The translations under genes and the position numbers were made by a program. Shown piece by piece: positions 2,380-42,375 of a stretch of 64,000 nt of DNA (position 1 is the first letter of the stretch; each line of letters begins with the position of its first letter). This stretch comes from a virus (taxonomy: Duplodnaviria; Heunggongvirae; Uroviricota; Caudoviricetes), in the IMG/VR virus record IMGVR_UViG_3300044970_001522, positions 22,278-86,277 of that record. One strand, written 5' to 3'. Under the pieces are notes generated by a model that searched no databases, was not told where the DNA came from, and was given only the letters and a program-made list of their open reading frames with translations.

Positions 2380-3321
2380 ATGCACGTGACCGAAACTGAA
2401 GAGTATCAGAAAACAGAGCCGATTGAGGTTTACTCGAATCGCGACGGACAAAACCTGTACAAGATTTCAAAGACCTCCTTTACGTTCAGTGCCGGTGAAA
2501 GGCAGGTTCGATTGCACGACACTCCCACGAGTTCGACTGACATTATCGTAGACGCAGACATACACAGCGGAGAAAGTTTCGCAGAACTTCTTCTGACTCT
2601 GTCGGCAATCAAAGACCTTCCTGTGCTGCGAAGTCTACAATTGGATATCCCGTACTTCCCTTATAGCCGCCAAGACCGCCAGTGCGCCGAAGGGGAAGCG
2701 TTTTCGCTAAGAACTTTTGTAAAAGCTCTCGCTCCCTACCTTGACGGGGTAGGCGATAGGGTGTACACATGGGACGTGCACAGCCACGTTGCAAATGAGC
2801 TCATTCGAACCGAAATCGGCTGCGAGTTCAACAACCTACAACCCCAACTGTTTCTCCAGAAGTTCAAAGACCGGGGGCAAGAGTTTAGTGCTAAGACAAT
2901 TGTGATTGCTCCGGATAAAGGTGCAGTCGAAAGAGCAACCCTCGTTCAACAAGCACTGGGACTCCACTCTGTAGTGTACGCTACGAAAGTTCGCAACCCC
3001 AAAGACGGGCAAATCCTAAGGACGGAAGTTCCAGAAGACGTCAGTTACAAGGGCAAAAACCTTCTGATTGTAGACGACATCTGCGACGGTGGTCGCACCT
3101 TTATCGAACTCGCCAAGGTGCTACGTCAGTTCGACCCGTCTCGAATTGACCTTTATGTCACCCATGGAATTTTCTCTAAGGGTTTTGAGGTGTTTGGGGA
3201 CTTGATTGACAACTTTTATGTTGCGAACTTACTACCAAACAGATCCTTCTACAAAGAGCTTCCCTCGAACTTGACCCACCTTCGCACCGAAAACTACCCC
3301 ACCCCACGCAACCAACCATGA
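2380..3321 (+). CDS. ribose-phosphate pyrophosphokinase (Prs) homolog; candidate ADPR-PP/PRPP synthetase
   Basis: Prs motifs DIPYFPYSRQDRQ (cf. PYFGYARQDR) and PRPP-binding loop NLLIVDDICDGGRTF; ATG 2380 follows promoter cassette (the track ORF starting at 2107 overlaps upstream gene and promoter). Confidence 0.6.
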   Translation: MHVTETEEYQKTEPIEVYSNRDGQNLYKISKTSFTFSAGERQVRLHDTPTSSTDIIVDADIHSGESFAELLLTLSAIKDLPVLRSLQLDIPYFPYSRQDRQCAEGEAFSLRTFVKALAPYLDGVGDRVYTWDVHSHVANELIRTEIGCEFNNLQPQLFLQKFKDRGQEFSAKTIVIAPDKGAVERATLVQQALGLHSVVYATKVRNPKDGQILRTEVPEDVSYKGKNLLIVDDICDGGRTFIELAKVLRQFDPSRIDLYVTHGIFSKGFEVFGDLIDNFYVANLLPNRSFYKELPSNLTHLRTENYPTPRNQP

Positions 3322-4832
3322 AAATTTTTGCGCCCCACGCAACCGACTTTTACAAGACGGGACACCCTTCGCAAAACCCTGAAGGCACCGAAGTAATCTA
3401 CGCCAACATGACGGCAAGGTCCGACCGTCTGGCGAACATGCCTGCTGATTTCGATCACAAGATCGTCGTGGCGAATGTCCAAGGGACAATGAAGTGGATG
3501 CTGAGGGATCTTTGGAATGAGACCTTTTTTCAGCAACCCAAGGCCAAGGTGTTGGATAAGTACAAACGGCGAATGGATTCATCCCTCGGCGAAGGTGTCG
3601 TAGGAACGGACCACATTGCTGAGCTTCACGACATGGGTTACATGCCGCTGCATGTGAAGGCACTACCCGAGGGCAGCCGTGTTAACATCGGAGTGCCGTT
3701 TCTGACGGCGCAAAACACACACAATGAGTTTAAGTGGCTGGCCCCGTGGTTAACCAACTATGTCGAAACCGCCAAGTCGTCTGAGCTGTGGAAGGCCATC
3801 AACGTGGCAACCATCGCCTACGAGTTTCGCCGTCTTCTCGACCACTACGCTGAAACCACAGGGAGTAATCCGCAGTTTGTTGACTTTCAGGGGCACGACT
3901 TCTCCGCTCGCGGAGTCGGAGGCATTCACGATGCCGCTGCGCACCAAATCGGCCACCTTTTTTCCTTCAAGGGCACGGACACAATCCTTTCCATTGATTA
4001 TTTGGAGGATTACTACGATTGCGGTTCCAATTTCATTGGGGGTAGTATTCCCGCTACGGAACACAGTGTGACCTGCCTTGGCGGTCAAAGAAACGAATTA
4101 GAGACAATTCGTCGAATTATTACAAAAGTATACCCAACTGGGCCGGTCAGTGTAGTTTTTGACACTTGGAACTACTGGGATGCACTGACTGTTATTGCAC
4201 CCGCACTTAAGGAAGACATCTTAAATCGTCGTCCGAATTCTCAGGGCATCGCTAAGGTCGTATTCCGTCCCGACAGTGGTGACCCTGAGAAAATCATCTG
4301 CGGTGACGCTGACGCTGAGCCAGGTAGCCGAGAGTACAAAGGTTCGCTTGAGCTTTTATGGGAGGTCTTCGGAGGAACGGTAAACGAGAAGGGTTTCAAG
4401 GTACTGAACCCTCGAGTTGGCTTAATTTACGGCGACTCAATCACTCTTCCACGGGCCAGGGCCATCCTGGAGCACATGAGGCAGCTTGGGTGGGCGTCCG
4501 AAAACATCGTGTTCGGTATCGGTTCCTACACCTATCAATACCATACACGGGACACGTTCGGTATCGCATACAAAACGACCTGGGGGCAAATTAACGGTGT
4601 CGCCGTTGAAACTATGAAGGACCCCATTACGGATCGCGGCACGAAAAAGTCGGCGTTGGGTCTACTGCGAGTTGAAAAGGATGGGGAGAACTTTGTTCTT
4701 CATCAACAGCAGACTCGTGAGCAAGAGCAGCGAGGCGAGCTTCGCACCGTGTTCTTAAACAGCGTGGTTTACGGGGAGGATGTAAACTCACTGCCTAACA
4801 TTCGTACTCGACTTCTCAACCCCGCAGCTTAG
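3318..4832 (+). CDS. nicotinamide phosphoribosyltransferase (NAMPT/NadV-like)
   Basis: 504 aa; NAMPT-like stretches (GTDTILSIDY, FGIGSYTYQYHTRDT, MKDPITDRGTKKSALGLLRV); ATGA-coupled to the Prs-like gene. Confidence 0.7.
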   Translation: MKIFAPHATDFYKTGHPSQNPEGTEVIYANMTARSDRLANMPADFDHKIVVANVQGTMKWMLRDLWNETFFQQPKAKVLDKYKRRMDSSLGEGVVGTDHIAELHDMGYMPLHVKALPEGSRVNIGVPFLTAQNTHNEFKWLAPWLTNYVETAKSSELWKAINVATIAYEFRRLLDHYAETTGSNPQFVDFQGHDFSARGVGGIHDAAAHQIGHLFSFKGTDTILSIDYLEDYYDCGSNFIGGSIPATEHSVTCLGGQRNELETIRRIITKVYPTGPVSVVFDTWNYWDALTVIAPALKEDILNRRPNSQGIAKVVFRPDSGDPEKIICGDADAEPGSREYKGSLELLWEVFGGTVNEKGFKVLNPRVGLIYGDSITLPRARAILEHMRQLGWASENIVFGIGSYTYQYHTRDTFGIAYKTTWGQINGVAVETMKDPITDRGTKKSALGLLRVEKDGENFVLHQQQTREQEQRGELRTVFLNSVVYGEDVNSLPNIRTRLLNPAA

Positions 4833-4842
4833 GCTTGGTACA

Positions 4843-4875
4843 AGGGGGTTTACACCCCCTGTTCCGGGGTATAAT
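4843..4875 (+). promoter_or_regulatory. variant promoter (GGGGGTTTACACCCCC palindrome + TATAAT)
   Basis: palindrome overlapping TTTACA -35; TATAAT 16 nt downstream. Confidence 0.4.
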
Positions 4876-4931
4876 TCTGAAAGAACTGACGTTCCCTCGT
4901 GCGATGGGGAAACACTTAAATCACCAAGGTC

Positions 4932-5522
4932 ATGGACTACAAGACAATCGCATACAAGAAAACCATTCTGGTTTTAAATGCCACGTACGAACCCTTGAAC
5001 CAGACCTCGTGGCGAAGGGCTAGAGTGCTTGTATTGAAGGACAAGGCCCATGTCGTGTCCAGCCGCACCATTCGCCTAAAGACATACGTTAAGGTTCCCC
5101 AAGCCAAGATGGCAGCGGCGAAGCCCTCTCGCACCTTGATTCTAAAACGGGACAATCACACCTGCCAGTATTGCGAGTACTCCGGTCCTAAACTAACACT
5201 GGATCACGTTTTACCAAAGTCAAGAGGTGGCCAAGACACGTGGCAAAACCTTGTCACCAGCTGCCTTGAGTGCAACAATTGCAAGGACAATCGCACCCCG
5301 GAAGAGTGGGCGGTTGCCCTGAAGAAGGTGTTTTCGAAGGAAACCACGAATGTTTCTTCACTGCCTTTTAGCTGGGATAGCTTTCAGATTGGGATGATGG
5401 AAACCCGCGTCACTCGACGTGGCACCACTCTCGCCTCAAAACCGAAGGCACCTTACAGCAAAATGTCCGTTACAATCAGCACGGCAGAAGTAGAAGAGTG
5501 GCGTGAGTACGTCTATGTCTGA
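4932..5522 (+). CDS. HNH endonuclease
   Basis: CQYCEYSGPKLTLDHVLPKSRGG...NLVTSCLECNNCK HNH/zinc-finger motif. Confidence 0.65.
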   Translation: MDYKTIAYKKTILVLNATYEPLNQTSWRRARVLVLKDKAHVVSSRTIRLKTYVKVPQAKMAAAKPSRTLILKRDNHTCQYCEYSGPKLTLDHVLPKSRGGQDTWQNLVTSCLECNNCKDNRTPEEWAVALKKVFSKETTNVSSLPFSWDSFQIGMMETRVTRRGTTLASKPKAPYSKMSVTISTAEVEEWREYVYV

Positions 5523-22147: not shown

Positions 22148-22423
22148 ATGGCATTCCACCCTCAAGCAGAAGCCGATCTCGAAGCACTTTGGCTGGGGCT
22201 TCCCGAAGAAACCCGAAGCAAGGTTGAGAAAATGCCCGCAGGTTTGCGGGACTCTTTTCTGCAGTTGGCCCACTCCTACGCACTTTCTGCTTACAAACTC
22301 GGGGCTCGGCGATCCAGGCAAGACTGCCACAGGGCTCTTTTACTTGTGGCTGAGAAGGTGCATCCCGACAGCAACTTGGAAAGCTTCCTTGAGCCTGGCT
22401 TCGGTATGATTGCTCGTGCGTAG
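22148..22423 (+). CDS. hypothetical protein (paralog of 21836)
   Basis: duplicated promoter, 5'UTR and N-terminal codons. Confidence 0.3.
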   Translation: MAFHPQAEADLEALWLGLPEETRSKVEKMPAGLRDSFLQLAHSYALSAYKLGARRSRQDCHRALLLVAEKVHPDSNLESFLEPGFGMIARA

Positions 22424-23631: not shown

Positions 23632-24054
23632 ATGGCATTCACATCCGAAGGAACAATCGAGATCGACCTTCCCGAGTTATGGGAATGGGTTCACGACAAC
23701 TATCTCCCTGTCCCCAGGGGGTCTGAGGTACGTTATGGGGTGCCCCGCATCAACCGTGGGAACTCCGTCATGGAAATTGACTTTGCGGCTGCTACCGAGT
23801 GCGATCCGGCGGATTGGGCGGTGAAGCCGAAGGCGGTGACCCAGTGGGAATCTACTGGCGCTGCACAAACTGAAAGTCCTACCGAAGGGGGAGCTCAACA
23901 TACCATTGAGCTGCGTGTATCGCAAAACTTTTATGACGTGGTGACCCTTCTTGCAAAGGCTGACGGTATAAGTAAAGCCGACGTCATAAGAAGGGCTGTG
24001 GAGCTATTCGCCAGAGAGGCAGCCGAAGGCGGTGACCCAGTGGGAGGAGCTTAA
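23632..24054 (+). CDS. ribbon-helix-helix DNA-binding protein (C-terminal RHH)
   Basis: C-terminus FYDVVTLLAKADGISKADVIRRAVELFA resembles a CopG/Arc RHH. Confidence 0.35.
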   Translation: MAFTSEGTIEIDLPELWEWVHDNYLPVPRGSEVRYGVPRINRGNSVMEIDFAAATECDPADWAVKPKAVTQWESTGAAQTESPTEGGAQHTIELRVSQNFYDVVTLLAKADGISKADVIRRAVELFAREAAEGGDPVGGA

Positions 24055-24303
24055 GTGAAATTCAAAATTACTAGAAACCCTGTGAAGGAACCCAACCTAA
24101 ACTGTCGGGTAATGAGGATTTTAGTACCCTATGCTCTTTTAATCGACGCTGCAATTGAAATCTTCACGTTCTCGCAGTTCAGAGGTAACCTTCAAATGAC
24201 TTTGATCGTTAAGTTAGCTAAGGAGAGAGAAAAGCTAGCTAAGCAATCGCGTAAGCTTCACAACATTTGACTTCATGACTCCTTTCACTCTTCTCTTTTA
24301 GCC

Positions 24304-24420
24304 CTCAAACTCACCGGGTATATATCCTGGCCCTGGCTTCTGGTGCTCCTTCCCTCGTTCATCGACTCTTCGCTTGTATCTCTCTATGTAGGGTTTTGGT
24401 ACTACACCTTTGGAAAAACA
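24304..24420 (+). pseudogene. third, start-less copy of the WPWL-motif membrane protein
   Basis: LKLTGYISWPWLLVLLPSF encoded with no in-frame ATG/GTG after the upstream stop; a short out-of-frame ATG ORF lies just upstream. Confidence 0.3.
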
Positions 24421-24501
24421 CCTGGGTCTCTGGTTTCCGGACCAACGGAAGGTTCCGCCGCAAATAATTTATCACTTTCTCAACAACCAACCTAAACCAA
24501 A

Positions 24502-25554
24502 ATGGCAAACATCGAACGCAAACTCGCCTCCGTCCAGCGAATCGCTGAGGTTCGCTCTATCCCTGAAGCAGACAGAATCTGTGCCTACCGTGTTAATGGG
24601 TGGTGGGTTGTTGACTCTGTAGGTAAGTATGAGGTTGGGGACTTGGCAGTTTACCTGGAGCCAGACTCGTTTGTGCCCCATGTACTGGATCCTACTCTGT
24701 CTAAGGGGAAAGAACCGAAGGAGTATAAGGGGGTAAGGGGGGAGAAATTAAGAACAATTCGGCTGAAAAAGCAACTTTCTCAGGGGTTGTTGCTACCGTT
24801 CGTGGAGACATTGAACGGAGGATTCTTCCAAGTCAAAGGTGATGACGGCTTCTTACGCTTTGTAAGGGAAGGTGACGATGTTACCGAACTCCTCGGTATT
24901 CAAAAGTGGGAAGCTCCGGTCCCCGCATGCCTTGCCGGACAAGTTCGTGGAAACTTCCCGAGCTACATTACCAAAACGGATCAGCCGAGAGTTCAATCTC
25001 TATACGACAAACTGGGGGAATACAAGAATGTTGTATACGAAGTTACGGAGAAACTAGAGGGTACATCTTGTACGATGTACCTTAACAACGGAGAGTTCGG
25101 AGTTTGCTCCCGTAACTTAGACCTAAAAGAGGATAATAATAACACTTATTGGTCCGTCGCTAGAAAAGTCAATCTAGAAGAAAAACTGAAGACTGCAGGG
25201 TTTGACAATGTGGCTGTACAGGGAGAAGTTGTAGGCCCAAAAATCCAGCAAAACATCTACAAGCTAAATGACTTCAAGTTCTTTGTTTTTGATGTCTACC
25301 TTACGGATATGGGGAGGTACATGACCCCCCTGGAAAGGAAAAACTTTTGCGATCAATTTGGTTTGGGCCACGTCCCTGTGTTGGGAAGCTTCTCTATAAA
25401 GGATATGGGTGTGGAAGAGATCCTCGGTATGGCAGACGGTTTCTCTCAACTTAACAATAAGACTCTCCGGGAGGGGATTGTCTTCAAGAGTGAATGTGGT
25501 GCTTTTAGCTTCAAGAGCATCAGCAATCAGTACCTTCTTAAAAGCGGGCTTTGA
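24502..25554 (+). CDS. RNA-ligase-family nucleotidyltransferase (Rnl2-like) with duplicated C-terminus downstream
   Basis: motif I TEKLEGTS (KxxG lysine nucleotidyltransferase); the 3' end is antisense-overlapped by a homing endonuclease gene and duplicated at 26464-26691. Confidence 0.5.
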   Translation: MANIERKLASVQRIAEVRSIPEADRICAYRVNGWWVVDSVGKYEVGDLAVYLEPDSFVPHVLDPTLSKGKEPKEYKGVRGEKLRTIRLKKQLSQGLLLPFVETLNGGFFQVKGDDGFLRFVREGDDVTELLGIQKWEAPVPACLAGQVRGNFPSYITKTDQPRVQSLYDKLGEYKNVVYEVTEKLEGTSCTMYLNNGEFGVCSRNLDLKEDNNNTYWSVARKVNLEEKLKTAGFDNVAVQGEVVGPKIQQNIYKLNDFKFFVFDVYLTDMGRYMTPLERKNFCDQFGLGHVPVLGSFSIKDMGVEEILGMADGFSQLNNKTLREGIVFKSECGAFSFKSISNQYLLKSGL

Positions 25555-26397
25555 CGGTCCCGTTTTGGCCTTGTTTGGGGTTAAATCAACCCTGAGAAGA
25601 AGGTTCCCCACTCCGCATTCATTCACATCCAACTGACTACCAATTTGACTGGGAGTGTAGCCCTTGAGATGTAAAACCAAGATACTTATGCAGTAGTCGC
25701 TGTAACTAGAGAACCTGTTCCCGTACTTATTATACACTTTAGTTCTCTGCTGGTCGTTCAAAGAAGTCAGATTTAGGCGCTCTAGGGCTTTAGCAACGCC
25801 TCTGACGTTTACTCCCAGGGCTTTTGAAATGACCTCCGCGATACCCCAACAAGACTCGTATAGGTTTTCTATCTCAACTAAGAAATGTTTATAGGAGTGA
25901 AATCTGTTTCTAATTGCTGGACTTTTTAATAGCTGCTTCCAGGAATTTTCTTCGGCTCTTCCCTTTGCAGCCATAGACAGTTTCTTCTTAGTTTCTTCTG
26001 AGGCTTTAAAACCTTTTCTAGTCTTGCTAATCTTCTCCGCAGTTAAATGTGTCACGGGGCAATTCTCCTTGGTTCTACCCACATTCCATGGCGCCCCCTT
26101 GGCCCCGAAAGCGTTCTTTCGGCTTCTGTTTAAGTATAGTTCGTTGAACTCTATGTTTAGTCTTCGTAAAACAGTTTGTTCCCATTCGGCTGCCTTTTTA
26201 GGTTCGTCTCCAAAAGTTTTTCTCACTTCCAGGATATCTGGCTCCCCGTGAACTTTTCTAAATGCTTTTACATGCCGGGAGCTGGTGAAATAGGCAACCC
26301 AAAGGTCAGCAGGGTGACATCCTTTGGCGAATCTAACTCCGTAGTAGTACTTATTGAACCGGGACCAACCCACTCTGTATGTGTAGCAATTTCTCAT
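25264..26397 (-). CDS. GIY-YIG homing endonuclease (seg-like) with NUMOD3 motifs
   Basis: N-terminus CYTYRVGWSRFNKYYYGVRFA (GIY-YIG); HLTAEKISKTRKGFKASEETKKKLSMAAKGR (NUMOD3 repeats); the only minus-strand gene in the window. Confidence 0.7.
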   Translation of the reverse strand: MRNCYTYRVGWSRFNKYYYGVRFAKGCHPADLWVAYFTSSRHVKAFRKVHGEPDILEVRKTFGDEPKKAAEWEQTVLRRLNIEFNELYLNRSRKNAFGAKGAPWNVGRTKENCPVTHLTAEKISKTRKGFKASEETKKKLSMAAKGRAEENSWKQLLKSPAIRNRFHSYKHFLVEIENLYESCWGIAEVISKALGVNVRGVAKALERLNLTSLNDQQRTKVYNKYGNRFSSYSDYCISILVLHLKGYTPSQIGSQLDVNECGVGNLLLRVDLTPNKAKTGPSKPAFKKVLIADALEAKSTTFTLEDNPLPESLIVKLRETVCHTEDLFHTHILYREASQHRDVAQTKLIAKVFPFQGGHVPPHIRKVDIKNKELEVI

Positions 26398-26463
26398 TGG
26401 TTTCAGAACGACTTGTTAAGGTTTACCCTGAATGACTTCGCCTAGTTAAAAACTAGACGGCCC

Positions 26464-26691
26464 TTGGTGCCTGGGGACGCTAAAGCCCCCCTGGAGCACG
26501 CACCCGTCCTGGACCTTTCCCTGGTGCTGACCGACCGGTTCGGCTCCCTGGAGGAGCTGCTAGCTTACGCCGATGGCCCGTCTCTGAACCCCAAGGTTAA
26601 GCGAGAAGAGATTGTCCTCAAATCCAATGAGTATGGTTTCACTTTTAAGGCCATCAGTAATGAATGGTCGATGAAAAAGAAGGAGAAGTGA
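26464..26691 (+). pseudogene. divergent GC-rich duplicate of the RNA ligase C-terminal segment (relic or co-conversion fragment)
   Basis: HAPVLDLSLVLTDRFGSLEELLAYADG...EEIVLKSNEYGFTFKAISNEW aligns with the ligase C-terminus HVPVLGSFSIKDMGVEEILGMADG...EGIVFKSECGAFSFKSISNQY; local GC content far above the surrounding sequence. Confidence 0.45.
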
Positions 26692-26915
26692 TGGCTGAAG
26701 TGAATCTAGAAGTCCCTTGGACTTCACTAATTGAATCTGAGCAGAAAGCTGCTCAAGCTATCTTAGACGACGAAAATCTAGGGAGGTTACTGAGCGAGGT
26801 TAAAATAGACCAAGACGCCCCCAAGCGAAAGATTGACCAAATACTCAAGAGTCTATCCAATCTAAAAAATTCTCTCTTTAATTCGCTACGCAAATTGGCA
26901 CATTCACCGCTATAG
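26691..26915 (+). CDS. hypothetical acidic protein
   Basis: ORF. Confidence 0.3.
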   Translation: MAEVNLEVPWTSLIESEQKAAQAILDDENLGRLLSEVKIDQDAPKRKIDQILKSLSNLKNSLFNSLRKLAHSPL

Positions 26916-27365
26916 ACAAGGCACTTCTACCCTAACCCTAGCACTTATATTTACTTTTCATTGTTTGGTAGCCTGCTCCACCTTAAGCCTAGGGATCTTG
27001 GCAACTCCTGTGAACCACTTCCTGGTGTCTTATGGCATCTCACTCCTTGCCATTACATGATACATTCATCGTCCCAACATACACAATGATTCCTAATGCG
27101 TAAGTTCTTTCGTGACTGCAATCTAGTAATTCGAAACTACCGTGATAACACACCAACCGTAGCAATGGCGGCAGTCTTTGCTATACAATGCTTAATTTCG
27201 TCCTTGGCGATAGTTGTCGGAGTTCATGTCCCTGTAACTTTTCTGTCCGTTACGAGTGTGGTACTTGGACTCCTCGGTGTTGCATTCACGTTGTATGTTC
27301 ATCGTCCAAATTTCGGTAGGCCGGATATCCGGGGGTAGTGTTCCCTCGTGAAAGCCAAAGTGGTT

Positions 27366-27433
27366 GGGGGCGGTTTCCCTTTTGCTTCGGGACGGTTTCC
27401 CGGCTTGTTTTTGCTCGGCAGAAACGCTATACT
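27366..27433 (+). promoter_or_regulatory. double cassette TTGTTT-N16-TATACT
   Basis: GGGGGCGGTTTCCC then GGGACGGTTTCCCGGC. Confidence 0.55.
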
Positions 27434-27465: not shown

Positions 27466-27738
27466 ATGTCAGCCCCAACCCCGTACGAATACCCTACGGG
27501 CACAACTCCCGAAGCGATTGAAGCCTTTCGCACCATCTGGTGTAAAACACCTGAAGACGACATTCGCTTAGGATCCGTCTTTGAAATTTTCCTGAAGGGG
27601 TTTGTTGCCGGACGGATTTCCATATTTGAGCAACTTTCCCGCGATCTCTCCAACTTGGATGAAAGGGTTGGGGACCTGGAGCGATTCCGAAACGCAACCG
27701 CAAATTACGACTCGTTCGGCGACTACACACGTCCTTAA
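27466..27738 (+). CDS. hypothetical protein (paralog of 27819)
   Basis: shared FEIFLKGFVAGRI / FLIFLKGYVSGRI motif. Confidence 0.3.
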   Translation: MSAPTPYEYPTGTTPEAIEAFRTIWCKTPEDDIRLGSVFEIFLKGFVAGRISIFEQLSRDLSNLDERVGDLERFRNATANYDSFGDYTRP

Positions 27739-27818
27739 GATGGAACTCCCCCCCGTTAACGGCAACCGACAAGATATACTGGAATAGTGCCTTAACTGAT
27801 TTCCTGGCCGTTTGGCCA

Positions 27819-28007
27819 ATGACCAAAGATGACACCGCATTTTTCACCGCGTCTGTTGAAGGTGCTCGTTCTTCGTCAACGGAGCGTATTGCGGCAGTGG
27901 TCTTGAGCGACACTTCACTTCGTTCAACCTTTCTAATCTTTCTAAAGGGATATGTTTCAGGGCGCATCAAACAGATGTCCACAAATGGGGTAGATGGGGA
28001 CACCTGA
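27819..28007 (+). CDS. hypothetical protein (paralog of 27466)
   Basis: shared motif. Confidence 0.25.
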   Translation: MTKDDTAFFTASVEGARSSSTERIAAVVLSDTSLRSTFLIFLKGYVSGRIKQMSTNGVDGDT

Positions 28008-28350
28008 AGCAAATGTCCCAATGATTGAAACCAGGGACACACCCTTGGTGACATTCTCCAATTCAAACCGCAAAGCACAAAGCTTAAAATGGAACTACTT
28101 GCCATAGCCCTGTTCAGCGTAGCCGTCGGTGCCTTCGGCTATATAAGCGATCGAAGAGACTGGAACGGGGGCTTCTGCAGGGAGTCCGGTAAACCGTGGG
28201 TTCAGTTTGACCTCGCAAGCGACGGCTCCCGAGGGTATAAAGACGGGTCAGACAACTACATTTGGATTTCTTACCCCGTCGACCACTCGAAAGTTTCCTA
28301 GTGCCCTCAACCGTGCCATTTCAACTCCCCATATACGCAACCACCCCCAA

Positions 28351-37199: not shown

Positions 37200-37311
37200 G
37201 GGACCGTAGCTCAACTGGTAGAGCACGAAAAGTTATCTTGACAAAGATACATCAGCAATTAAATTACCTCTTTTAAAGGCGCGGTTGCAGGTTCGAGTCC
37301 TGCCGGTCCCA
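37200..37311 (+). ncRNA. tRNA-like RNA with ~40-nt irregular hairpin replacing the anticodon arm
   Basis: perfect 7-bp acceptor stem (GGGACCG/CGGTCCC), canonical D arm (TAGCTCAACTGGTAGAGCA), T arm (GCAGG-TTCGAGT-CCTGC) and discriminator A; 61 nt lie between the D and T arms instead of the usual ~22. Confidence 0.5.
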
Positions 37312-38559: not shown

Positions 38560-38589
38560 TATTTCAGTCCAAGCAACCCCTCACAAACC

Positions 38590-39417
38590 ATGCCCGCTTT
38601 CGCCATCACCAACGACCTTAACTGGACCGTCTCCCCAAGGCCCACGGCATCGCTTAACTCCCATGGAGTCTGGGTTGCGGATCCAGACCGCAAAGCGATA
38701 CACCGAGACGACACCGACGAACGCCTCGGATATGTTTCCACCGAGTACGAGGTGGTGCAAAATGCCCAGCTGCTCGGGATGATTAACCCTATGGTTGAAG
38801 AGGGGCTTCTGGTAGTGGAAAACATGGGATACTTGGCTCACGGAGCCAAGGTGTTCGCCCAGGCGAAAATTAACCAGGAGTTTCGTGTAATTGGCGAGGA
38901 TTACAACGCATACATCACACTTCTGAATGGGCACACAGGGAACGCATCCGTAGCCATCGGCCCGGTTGCCACTCGCGTAATTTGTGGAAACACCTTTTCG
39001 ATGGCTTACTCTAACATCGGAGAAAAATTCCGCCACTCTTCCGGAGTGAACGAGCGCATTCTTGAGAGCACCGCAGTGCTTGACTTTGTGAATAGCGCCA
39101 TGAAGATGTATTCTAAAAGAGTTGAAGTCATCGCCTCGGCAACTTGCACTTCCGCCCAATTCCGTGCCTTCCTTGAGGCGACTTACAAGAAAGAAGCGGA
39201 CAAAATGCGCAATGTCAACGTTCTCAACGACCTGTTTTACAACGGCGCTGGTAACGAAGGTCGCACCTTTTACGATGCCATGAATGCGGTTACGGACTTT
39301 AGTTCCAATCGTAGTCGAAAGAGCGAGACCGGACGCTTTGGCTACGCAAACTTCGGCCAAGGCGCAACCATCAACCAGCGGGCCATGGAAGTAGCCCTTG
39401 ATATGGCTACTGTCTAA
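38590..39417 (+). CDS. DUF932-like protein (phage/plasmid-related, TIGR03299-like)
   Basis: LLNGHTGNASVAIGPVATRVICGNT resembles the conserved ...S.DGS...P.RVVCxNT core of DUF932. Confidence 0.45.
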   Translation: MPAFAITNDLNWTVSPRPTASLNSHGVWVADPDRKAIHRDDTDERLGYVSTEYEVVQNAQLLGMINPMVEEGLLVVENMGYLAHGAKVFAQAKINQEFRVIGEDYNAYITLLNGHTGNASVAIGPVATRVICGNTFSMAYSNIGEKFRHSSGVNERILESTAVLDFVNSAMKMYSKRVEVIASATCTSAQFRAFLEATYKKEADKMRNVNVLNDLFYNGAGNEGRTFYDAMNAVTDFSSNRSRKSETGRFGYANFGQGATINQRAMEVALDMATV

Positions 39418-41785: not shown

Positions 41786-41857
41786 GCCCTGGTAGCTCAG
41801 TGGAAGAGCACTGTCCTTCTAAGACACCGGTCGTGGGTTCGAATCCCTCTCAGGGCG
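41786..41857 (+). tRNA. tRNA-Arg (anticodon TCT), slightly irregular stems
   Basis: acceptor GCCCTGG/TCAGGGC, D arm GCTC-AGTGGAA-GAGC, anticodon loop CTTCTAA, T loop TTCGAAT; no encoded CCA. Confidence 0.55.
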
Positions 41858-42290: not shown

Positions 42291-42375
42291 GGAAGAGTGG
42301 CTGAGCGGCCGAAAGCAGCAGCTTCGAACACTGTAGAGGGTTAAACCTCCGGGGGTTCAAATCCCCCCTCTTCCG
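42291..42375 (+). tRNA. tRNA-Ser (anticodon CGA), type II
   Basis: acceptor GGAAGAG/CTCTTCC; D arm GCT-GAGCGGCCGAA-AGC nearly identical to bacterial tRNA-Ser; loop TTCGAAC; variable arm GAGG-GTTAAA-CCTC; T arm GGGGG-TTCAAAT-CCCCC. Confidence 0.55.

Follow-up and report, generated by a model that had tools for sequence, protein, structure and literature searches.

In bacteriophage T4, the homing endonuclease gene segD is antisense to its neighbours, and the endonuclease open reading frames (ORFs) of this phage overlap their upstream neighbours by 1–24 bp (PMC2988022). Genes split by endonuclease insertion are represented by the nrdA/mobE 'genes in pieces' of Aeromonas phage Aeh1 and by gp17A/17B of phage PX29 (PMC2988022). 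For T4 intron homing, one-sided illegitimate repair mediated by microhomology was shown experimentally by Parker, Belisle and Belfort in 1999, as summarised in PMC2988022. The mobile ORFs of fungal mitochondria, in atp6 of Allomyces macrogynus and in atp6, atp9, cox2 and nad3 of Glomus, carry an inserted foreign C-terminus; the native copy of the C-terminus is the closer one to relatives, while the inserted copy is divergent (PMC3630166). The locus described here lies in a 64,000 nucleotide (nt) stretch of DNA from a virus of the class Caudoviricetes (IMG/VR record IMGVR_UViG_3300044970_001522, positions 22,278 to 86,277), referred to as the window, the source of which is a large freshwater phage. 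In it, a minus-strand gene for a putative GIY-YIG homing endonuclease runs antisense into the 3' end of an RNA ligase gene, as segD is antisense to its neighbours, and a second copy of the ligase C-terminus follows.

It is highly probable that a free-standing, intron-less GIY-YIG homing endonuclease, convergent with the ligase gene at its 3' end, brought with it a foreign nucleotidyltransferase (NTase) half of the ligase, and that the native end of the gene was left behind as a relic. An initial annotation, made from the sequence alone, had proposed that the endonuclease came with flanking donor ligase sequence and that the native C-terminus remained, and relatives with and without the endonuclease support this. 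The donor tract exists; its extent, however, is much greater than the duplicated ~70 residues first noted, taking in the whole NTase half from 24912. The features of the locus, with lengths in amino acids (aa) where these are given, are listed below.

24502..25554, plus strand: chimeric DraRnl/Rnl5-type RNA ligase gene, 350 aa, intact
24502..24903, plus strand: resident-type 5' part of the ligase gene (OB domain), common with endonuclease-free alleles, 96.7% nt identity to L001 and 90% to L003
24904..24911, no strand: probable left homologous crossover interval, conserved linker coding GIQKWEAP, from informative sites and alignment
24912..25554, plus strand: probable imported NTase half of the ligase, including copy 1 of the C-terminus (motifs IV and V), part of the mobile cassette, GC 44.5%
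25264..26397, minus strand: full endonuclease ORF, 377 aa
25555..26397, minus strand: body of the predicted free-standing GIY-YIG endonuclease, aa 1–281, with catalytic domain, NUMOD3-like linker and helix-turn-helix DNA-binding module
25426..25554, minus strand: C-terminal tail of the endonuclease, aa 282–324, candidate dual-coding segment antisense to the last 42 ligase codons and stop codon
25264..25425, minus strand: extra 54 antisense codons of the endonuclease ORF, lineage-specific, probably neutral read-through
26398..26465, minus strand: 5' flank of the endonuclease gene travelling with the cassette, up to its right end, 68 nt, common to L004/L006
26466..26691, plus strand: probable relic of the resident ligase 3' end (copy 2), from the apparent illegitimate junction 26465/26466
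26464..26691, plus strand: small ORF containing copy 2, 75 aa
26676..26915, plus strand: downstream gene, the ATG of which overlaps the relic stop codon (TGATG), with an AAGGAG ribosome-binding site inside the relic, read directly

An ORF check placed the ligase, the minus-strand ORF and the small ORF where the initial annotation had put them. The minus-strand ORF covers the last 291 nt of the ligase gene (~290 nt had been estimated) in the codon-for-codon antisense frame, a total of 97 codons, and the ligase stop codon TGA is read on the other strand as TCA, codon 282 of the endonuclease. The GC content of the window is 49.5%, close to the ~50% background first given, and that of the cassette is 44.4%. 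Copy 2 (26464–26691) had been described as ~65% GC, which is true of its first half only (67.5%); the second half has 40.5% and the whole 54.4%. The arrangement is 100% identical in eight independent assemblies (L010–L017) and ~99% identical in seven more (L018–L024), and is therefore not an assembly artefact. A scan of 24300–27000 for σ70 promoters found no promoter-like site, and terminator-like sites in the same interval were no commoner than in shuffles. A repeat search returned only short two-copy matches, which were judged to be due to chance.

Relatives were found through protein searches in metagenomes followed by comparison of their contigs; a DNA search of 24000–27200 against 50,697 phage records gave no match. 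In protein alignment, P0006 and P0007 have the N-terminal ~135 residues of the window ligase almost unchanged, followed by a different NTase half with a copy-2-like tail. P0003, P0004 and P0005 have the NTase half of the window almost unchanged, with other N-terminal OB domains in front. The window ligase is thus a chimera. In DNA comparisons, the endonuclease-free contigs L001–L003 (those of P0006/P0007) match the window at 96.7% and 90% until ~24962 and afterwards only downstream, and L001 is 99% identical in the upstream flank and 96.7% in the ligase 5' part. Of the contigs with the endonuclease, L004/L005 match window positions 24485–26464 at 86.6%, L006–L008 match 24904–26465 at 92.6%, and L009 is 99.6% identical from 24895 as far as its contig reaches. 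The imported NTase half shows these same identities (99.6% to L009, 92.6% to L006 and 86.6% to L004) despite the differing N-terminal domains of the ligases. These filled contigs all hold an intact 377 aa antisense ORF with the same ligase overlap.

The presence of the endonuclease is polymorphic at this locus. L001–L003, L026, L032 and others are free of it, while the window, L004–L009, L018, L180, L183 and L267 carry it; ligase alleles lacking the endonuclease, as in L001–L003, were the comparison suggested by the initial annotation. Since matches to the NTase half and the endonuclease are shared across filled contigs with other surroundings, the mobile unit is taken from these comparisons to be a cassette of ~1.55 kb (24912–26465), composed of the foreign NTase half, the endonuclease gene and its 68 nt 5' flank. 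The same cassette is found behind three different ligase N-terminal domains in other phages, which is the pattern expected of co-conversion.

The two junctions of the cassette differ in kind. On the left, three-way informative sites show the window to follow L001 until 24903 and the cassette type (L018) from 24912, with which the alignment agrees, and the junction has the appearance of a homologous crossover in the OB/NTase linker encoding GIQKWEAP. On the right, the flank is common to the window, L004 and L006 until ...AAAACTAGACGGCCCTT, where the window departs and homology between L004 and L006 continues. This mutual homology runs past ...GACGGCCCTT, whereas the window switches at 26465/26466 to ligase-tail codons. 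The relic begins LVPGDAKAPLEHAPVL, the corresponding L026 sequence being LVPLGADLTHAPVL, and microhomology at the junction is at most 2–3 nt. Such a non-homologous join would be the signature of one-sided illegitimate double-strand-break repair. A perfect palindrome, CTAGTTAAAAACTAG, is present at 26444–26458, a few bases left of this junction, in the window lineage only; L004 and L006 have CTATATTCAAAACTAG at this place.

The close relative L018, a 277 kb contig that is 94–98% identical around the locus, has the same cassette, junction and relic but a different OB domain type. Between the window and L018 there is one difference in 1528 nt of cassette, with complete identity over 24937–26229, and two differences in 228 nt of relic, as against a divergence of ~2–3% in the downstream DNA. 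The OB domains of the two (window 24535–24895, L018 3045–3432) cannot be aligned, that of the window being L001/L004-like and that of L018 L006/P0004-like. This suggests that the N-terminal domain has also been exchanged by recombination at this locus. The single cassette difference, set against the downstream divergence and the unalignable OB domain upstream, is indicative of a recent movement or sweep of the cassette.

Copy 2 was correctly recognised by the initial annotation as a second ligase C-terminus. It is identical to ligase residues 288–347 at 30 of 63 positions (48%, E=1e-11, BLASTP), and on its own it matches PHROG 968 'RNA ligase' (E=2e-7). Chance similarity to ligase C-termini, or relatives with both copies and no endonuclease, had been named as the observations that would speak against homing; the similarity is far beyond chance, and relatives carry copy 2 only together with the endonuclease. 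The tail type of copy 2, AYADGPS.NPKVKRE..FKAISNEW, is that of the endonuclease-free ligases L001, L003, L026 and L032, and its nt identity is ~60% to endonuclease-free tails and 47% to copy 1. The stop codon of copy 2 overlaps the start of the next gene (TGATG), with the AAGGAG site just upstream. In the endonuclease-free L003, a homologue of this downstream gene is found directly 3' of the ligase, and the gene order is that of the window, the ligase being followed by homologues of the genes at 26691, 27096 and 27466. The tail type, the TGATG/AAGGAG context and the L003 gene order together suggest that copy 2 is the resident ligase's own 3' end.

Copy 2 lacks any 5' ligase part and the motif V Leu-Leu, and its motif IV has Glu at a position where Gly is otherwise invariant; it is accordingly regarded as a relic and not as a functioning end of a gene. 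Copy 1 continues the ligase reading frame, and the ligase is under purifying selection, with a ratio of non-synonymous to synonymous substitution rates (dN/dS) of 0.10–0.31 among the window, L004 and L006. On these grounds imported copy 1 would be the functional C-terminus and copy 2 the displaced native relic, a question that had been left open, and the chimeric ligase is presumably intact and functional. Its Pfam matches are the PHA02142 OB domain PF21189 (aa 8–99) and RNA_ligase PF09414 (aa 179–338). It also scores 176.6 bits, against a cutoff of 151, with TIGR02306 RNA_lig_DRB0094 (Deinococcus DRB0094, DraRnl/Rnl5-type), which covers aa 8–347. By the motif names in general use for ligases, KxEG is motif I, EGIVFK motif IV and FKSISN..LLK motif V.

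Two observations weigh against this history. The exact pre-insertion allele was not found, a search with copy 2 giving only relic ORFs (P0121, P0122) and no full-length ligase that has a tail of the copy 2 type at high identity. Copy 2 also shares only ~60% nt identity with the closest tails of endonuclease-free ligases, as against 97% between the 5' part and L001, which would mean that the NTase half of the recipient was of an unsampled type or that the relic has drifted. The opposite polarity would make the endonuclease-bearing ligase the resident, with a foreign ligase tail and small genes (26466 to ~27390) pasted downstream by an exchange, illegitimate or homologous, in which the endonuclease had no initiating part. 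Both polarities would yield the same recombinant, in L004/L006 the endonuclease is directly followed by a homologue of window gene 27466, and the endonuclease-free L001 also lacks 26691–27390. However, the upstream flank (99%) and ligase 5' part (96.7%) are closest to the endonuclease-free L001, and L003, also free of the endonuclease, retains the order of ligase and homologues of 26691, 27096 and 27466. The cassette has a lower GC content than both flanks and is far more uniform between lineages than either, as expected of the moving part. The opposite polarity is therefore unlikely.

Two further explanations are considerably less probable still. Tandem duplication of the ligase 3' end within the genome, with divergence and later insertion of the endonuclease between the copies, would give two copies in the same orientation ~1.1 kb apart, as are found. 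It is, however, contradicted by copies that belong to two different, widely separated tail clades (47% nt identity), by the travel of copy 1 alongside the endonuclease in many unrelated contexts without a second copy, and by breakpoints that coincide with the cassette edges. The initial annotation had offered as an alternative a degenerate intron with an alternative 3' exon. A group I (or II) intron with an antisense endonuclease gene, 26466–26691 being the true or alternative 3' exon, would account for two candidate 3' ends, and endonuclease genes are often intron-borne. This was rejected: no intron family was matched in Rfam at gathering thresholds anywhere in the window, nor was there any Rfam match in 24400–27000 even at E<=1. 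With the ligase ORF also continuous, neither a self-splicing intron nor an intein surrounds the endonuclease gene. The ligase ORF is moreover complete without splicing and under purifying selection, the relic lacks the motif IV Gly, and other lineages have the endonuclease with no second exon.

Under the preferred history of homing with an imported NTase half, the endonuclease would have cut an endonuclease-free ligase allele somewhere in the part coding for the NTase, and the break would have been repaired from a genome bearing the endonuclease. On the left, repair would have crossed over by homology in the conserved OB/NTase linker (24904–24911). On the right, the first event would have been a join with <=2–3 nt of microhomology at 26465/26466, through one-sided illegitimate double-strand-break repair, which would have stranded the last ~75 codons of the resident ligase downstream. 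The outcome would be an intact, domain-swapped ligase and the endonuclease, together with a relic of the former 3' end that probably still supplies the ribosome-binding site and the overlapping stop and start to the next gene. In later homing into related alleles the relic may have served as the right-hand homology arm, which would explain the same cassette and relic behind two N-terminal domains (window and L018). With no stop codon of its own before the ligase, the endonuclease ORF reads antisense through ligase motifs V and IV, and constraint in both frames seems to act on the first ~43 of these codons. The direct observations beneath this reconstruction are the anatomy, the alleles with and without the endonuclease, the breakpoints, the mosaicism, the GIY-YIG fold, purifying selection and the constraint on synonymous sites. 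What is inferred is that the endonuclease cleaves the allele lacking it, how the break was repaired and that the tail has a function as protein; similarity of the flanks, synteny and GC content are the grounds for the direction given to the founding recombination.

The endonuclease had been given as GIY-YIG with NUMOD3. Predicted-fold comparison found the alpha/beta catalytic fold of GIY-YIG; Pfam, however, gave no GIY-YIG match (PF01541) and only a sub-threshold NUMOD3 (E=0.028). PF01541 is absent from all 120 homologues in precomputed annotation, NCBIfam gave no match, and sequence (phmmer) and profile searches of PDB returned nothing useful. Across 78 homologues, Y7, Y18-Y19-G20, E73 and N90 are invariant and R22 is conserved in at least 90%, a pattern that would fit GIY-YIG. 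The spacing resembles that of Y6/Y17/R27/E75/N90 in I-TevI. The remainder of the protein is helical, with helix-turn-helix-like matches. It matches PHROG 314 'homing endonuclease' and homologues annotated as phage homing endonucleases. The GIY-YIG assignment is based on the predicted fold and the conserved residues, and the protein is on this basis predicted to belong to a divergent subfamily recognisable by fold only. The dN/dS of its body (281 codons) is 0.10–0.14, which suggests that the protein is functional. A scan of metagenome contigs with the endonuclease profile found mostly distant relatives that are unrelated to ligases.

Other states of the locus are seen among the relatives. In L103 (~265–1235) the endonuclease has a frameshift near codon 65, representing a decaying copy or a sequencing error, while the adjoining ligase and overlapped tail are intact. 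In L223 (3512–4477, minus strand) a second type of endonuclease occupies the same place, its gene convergent with that of the ligase and abutting the ligase stop codon; the protein ends KAKTGPKKK*. It shares the DNA-binding module (38% identity over aa 116–283, E=1e-31), and its N-terminal ~150 aa are unrelated, His-rich and unrecognised by Pfam. Only a 51 aa C-terminal remnant of an L223-type endonuclease is present in L217 (3512–3667, minus strand). These sequences suggest shuffling of nuclease domains on a ligase-specific DNA-binding module, together with the usual cycle of decay. In L183 (4847–5545, minus strand) and L184, an in-frame internal deletion removes the whole NTase core of the ligase, including motif I, leaving the OB domain and the last ~47 codons, which overlap an intact 324 aa endonuclease gene (4001–4975). 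By its sequence this ligase is dead, its overlapped tail being preserved. In L267 (1201–7023; also L183 1–3937) the ligase is within an RNA-repair-like cluster, the order of which is T4 Rnl1-type ligase, HNH gene, Rnl5-type ligase, GIY-YIG endonuclease, AAA_33/Zeta-toxin-like kinase, NUMOD3 gene and metallophosphatase. The NUMOD3 gene, a second minus-strand gene, has three NUMOD3 motifs and brings the total to three endonuclease-like genes within 5 kb.

All lineages with this type of ligase tail (L004, L006, L180, L183, L102, L267 and the P0125 contig) show the antisense overlap, and homologues at only ~50% identity (P0125–P0133) likewise end in antisense translation of the ligase tail. The convergent overlap is 126–129 nt in L180, L267 and the P0125 contig. 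Every ligase seen with an ADGFSQLNNK-type tail has the endonuclease. Where ligase residues are identical between clades, the same codon is used in 56–67% of cases over the last 42 codons and in 32–40% over the rest of the gene (p=0.001–0.02; in single figures 64% vs 36%, p=0.003); within the window clade these fractions are 92–97% and 68–77%. This excess is present in 12 of 12 comparisons between clades and 3 of 3 within the window clade (Fisher p=0.0002–0.02), and no other equally conserved ligase block reaches it. The synonymous substitution rate (dS) of the ligase over the overlap is reduced ~3-fold (0.04–0.13 vs 0.11–0.34), while dS is equal between the flanking ligase and flanking endonuclease sequences. 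Two tail helices, at residues 284–299 and 311–322 of the endonuclease, are predicted with a predicted local distance difference test score (pLDDT) of ~87–90, and the stop position of the endonuclease is fixed within the sister clade.

The rest of the overlap has a different character. Over endonuclease codons 325–377, dN/dS is 0.7–1.06, ligase dS is not lowered and pLDDT falls from 57 to 38. These codons are open only in the window clade. The sister clade stops opposite a TCA Ser codon of the ligase at -42, which is GGT in the window, and it is for this reason that the window clade reads through. These 54 codons are probably neutral read-through in this lineage, and of the 97 codons in the overlap only ~43 seem to matter to the endonuclease. 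The endonuclease of L223 sits flush against the ligase stop codon, which suggests that endonucleases were associated with the ligase 3' end before the overlap existed; the latter probably arose when the endonuclease lost its own stop codon.

An even to somewhat better than even chance is given to the first ~43 overlapped codons being dual-coding, an argument that is based on a few dozen codons. The open antisense frame was rejected as evidence for this, as the frame is often open for 40 to >300 codons at 80 endonuclease-free ligase loci. Several observations count against dual coding. Ligases without the endonuclease frequently have >40 open codons in the codon-aligned antisense frame, and the chance of 42 open codons in this genome is 0.13–0.2. 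Most tail changes within clades leave the ligase residue as it was and alter that of the endonuclease, and in L223, where the DNA-binding module is shared, the endonuclease has no tail and stops immediately before reaching the ligase. No endonuclease-free ligase with the same tail type was available as a control, the candidate P0018 also carrying the endonuclease. The overlap may instead be passive, the endonuclease simply lacking a stop codon before the ligase and its extra 43–97 residues having no function. The codon conservation would then reflect chance or constraint at the nt level, such as an endonuclease binding site, an immunity site or RNA structure. This has a substantial but lesser probability. 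The commonly open frames and the chance of an open one are in its favour, as are the endonuclease-frame dN/dS of 0.6–1.06 across the overlap (0.6–0.9 for codons 282–324, from very few sites), the tail-less L223, which by its sequence would seem to work, and codons 325–377, which are clearly unconstrained. A passive overlap is harder to reconcile with a same-codon excess in all of the comparisons, above every other equally conserved block, or with a tail predicted as two confident helices and ended by a fixed stop in the sister clade.

The odds are about equal that the ~43 residue endonuclease tail is a functional segment overprinted antisense on ligase motifs IV and V, making the selfish gene inseparable from an essential part of its host gene. 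If so, the endonuclease would be unable to move without its own ligase tail, and change in the ligase tail would be constrained by the endonuclease. A linkage of this kind, built into the element, would force co-conversion at the level of the domain and hinder clean excision, and would be a new way of tying a homing element to its target. It would also be a conserved long antisense dual-coding segment in a double-stranded DNA phage.

Gene callers never call both of the overlapping genes, as is seen when window positions 25264–26397 are compared with calls on L010–L017 and L018–L023. The NCBI, ENA and Logan calls keep the ligase and leave an 'empty' gap of ~900 nt, and the JGI calls keep the 377 aa endonuclease and drop the ligase. 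It is likely that an opposite-strand overlap of 291 nt is beyond the callers' limit. As one of the overlapping genes is dropped, such elements are under-annotated.

The endonuclease had been described as the only minus-strand gene, which is approximately right, as two other long minus-strand ORFs (27494–28138 and 38581–39417) are without support. Within the former, a 203 aa ORF (27494–28105) is antisense to the plus-strand genes 27466–27738 and 27819–28007 and is probably spurious; it has no family matches, and only some assemblies (L012, L013) annotate it as a gene. An HNH endonuclease gene is present at 4932–5522 (Pfam HNH, E=2e-13), directly 3' of a NAPRTase-family (NAMPT-like) gene at 3318–4832, as had been noted. 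Three plus-strand tRNA genes were found with Rfam (37200–37311, 41786–41857 and 42291–42375). These and the 277 kb relative contig are consistent with a large, jumbo-size phage genome.

With an empty allele, several filled alleles, both junctions and decayed states, the locus is a natural record, at nt resolution, of a homing endonuclease reshaping its host gene. Repair driven by the endonuclease may be able to swap whole enzyme domains between phages, generating chimeric RNA-repair ligases, and an illegitimate first invasion may leave a gene relic that is later a homology arm. The architecture of inserted and displaced native C-termini, known from fungal mitochondria, would be extended to bacteriophages. 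Should the conserved antisense overlap prove functional, it would offer a case in which long dual coding can be tested, along with the physical tie between a selfish gene and its host gene.

Like the Seg endonucleases of T4-like phages, the endonuclease here has no intron, is positioned beside or between conserved phage genes and is polymorphic among relatives. Both would also spread by repair of double-strand breaks, flanking markers being co-converted ('intronless homing', localized marker exclusion), and both have a GIY-YIG catalytic fold followed by NUMOD3/helix-turn-helix DNA-binding modules. Here, however, co-conversion appears to have replaced a whole catalytic domain, making domain-swapped ligases, one flank is an apparent illegitimate join that left a host-gene relic, and the endonuclease ORF ends 43–97 codons inside the host gene on the opposite strand. 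The illegitimate repair of T4, as far as it is described in PMC2988022, has the same homology on one side and microhomology junction on the other, and was proposed as a route into ectopic sites. That was an engineered system, while the junction here would have arisen in nature, become fixed and afterwards spread among wild phages. As in Aeh1 and PX29, a conserved or essential phage gene has an endonuclease gene within it or at its end, and PX29 homologues of the window endonuclease were found in the homology search; the ligase here is unsplit, being kept whole by its imported replacement end.

The fungal mitochondrial elements have the same succession of a core, an in-frame foreign C-terminus, an endonuclease ORF and a displaced native C*-terminus (PMC3630166). 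The locus here differs from them in being in a bacteriophage rather than an organelle, and in having its endonuclease on the opposite strand, where it overlaps the inserted C-terminus instead of continuing in phase after it. The import also amounts to a whole domain of ~215 codons, and the relic keeps a role as the translation-initiation region of the next gene. Free-standing homing with co-conversion is known, and what is new is its combination, in a phage host, with whole-domain exchange, an antisense endonuclease and a conserved long overlap with catalytic motifs.

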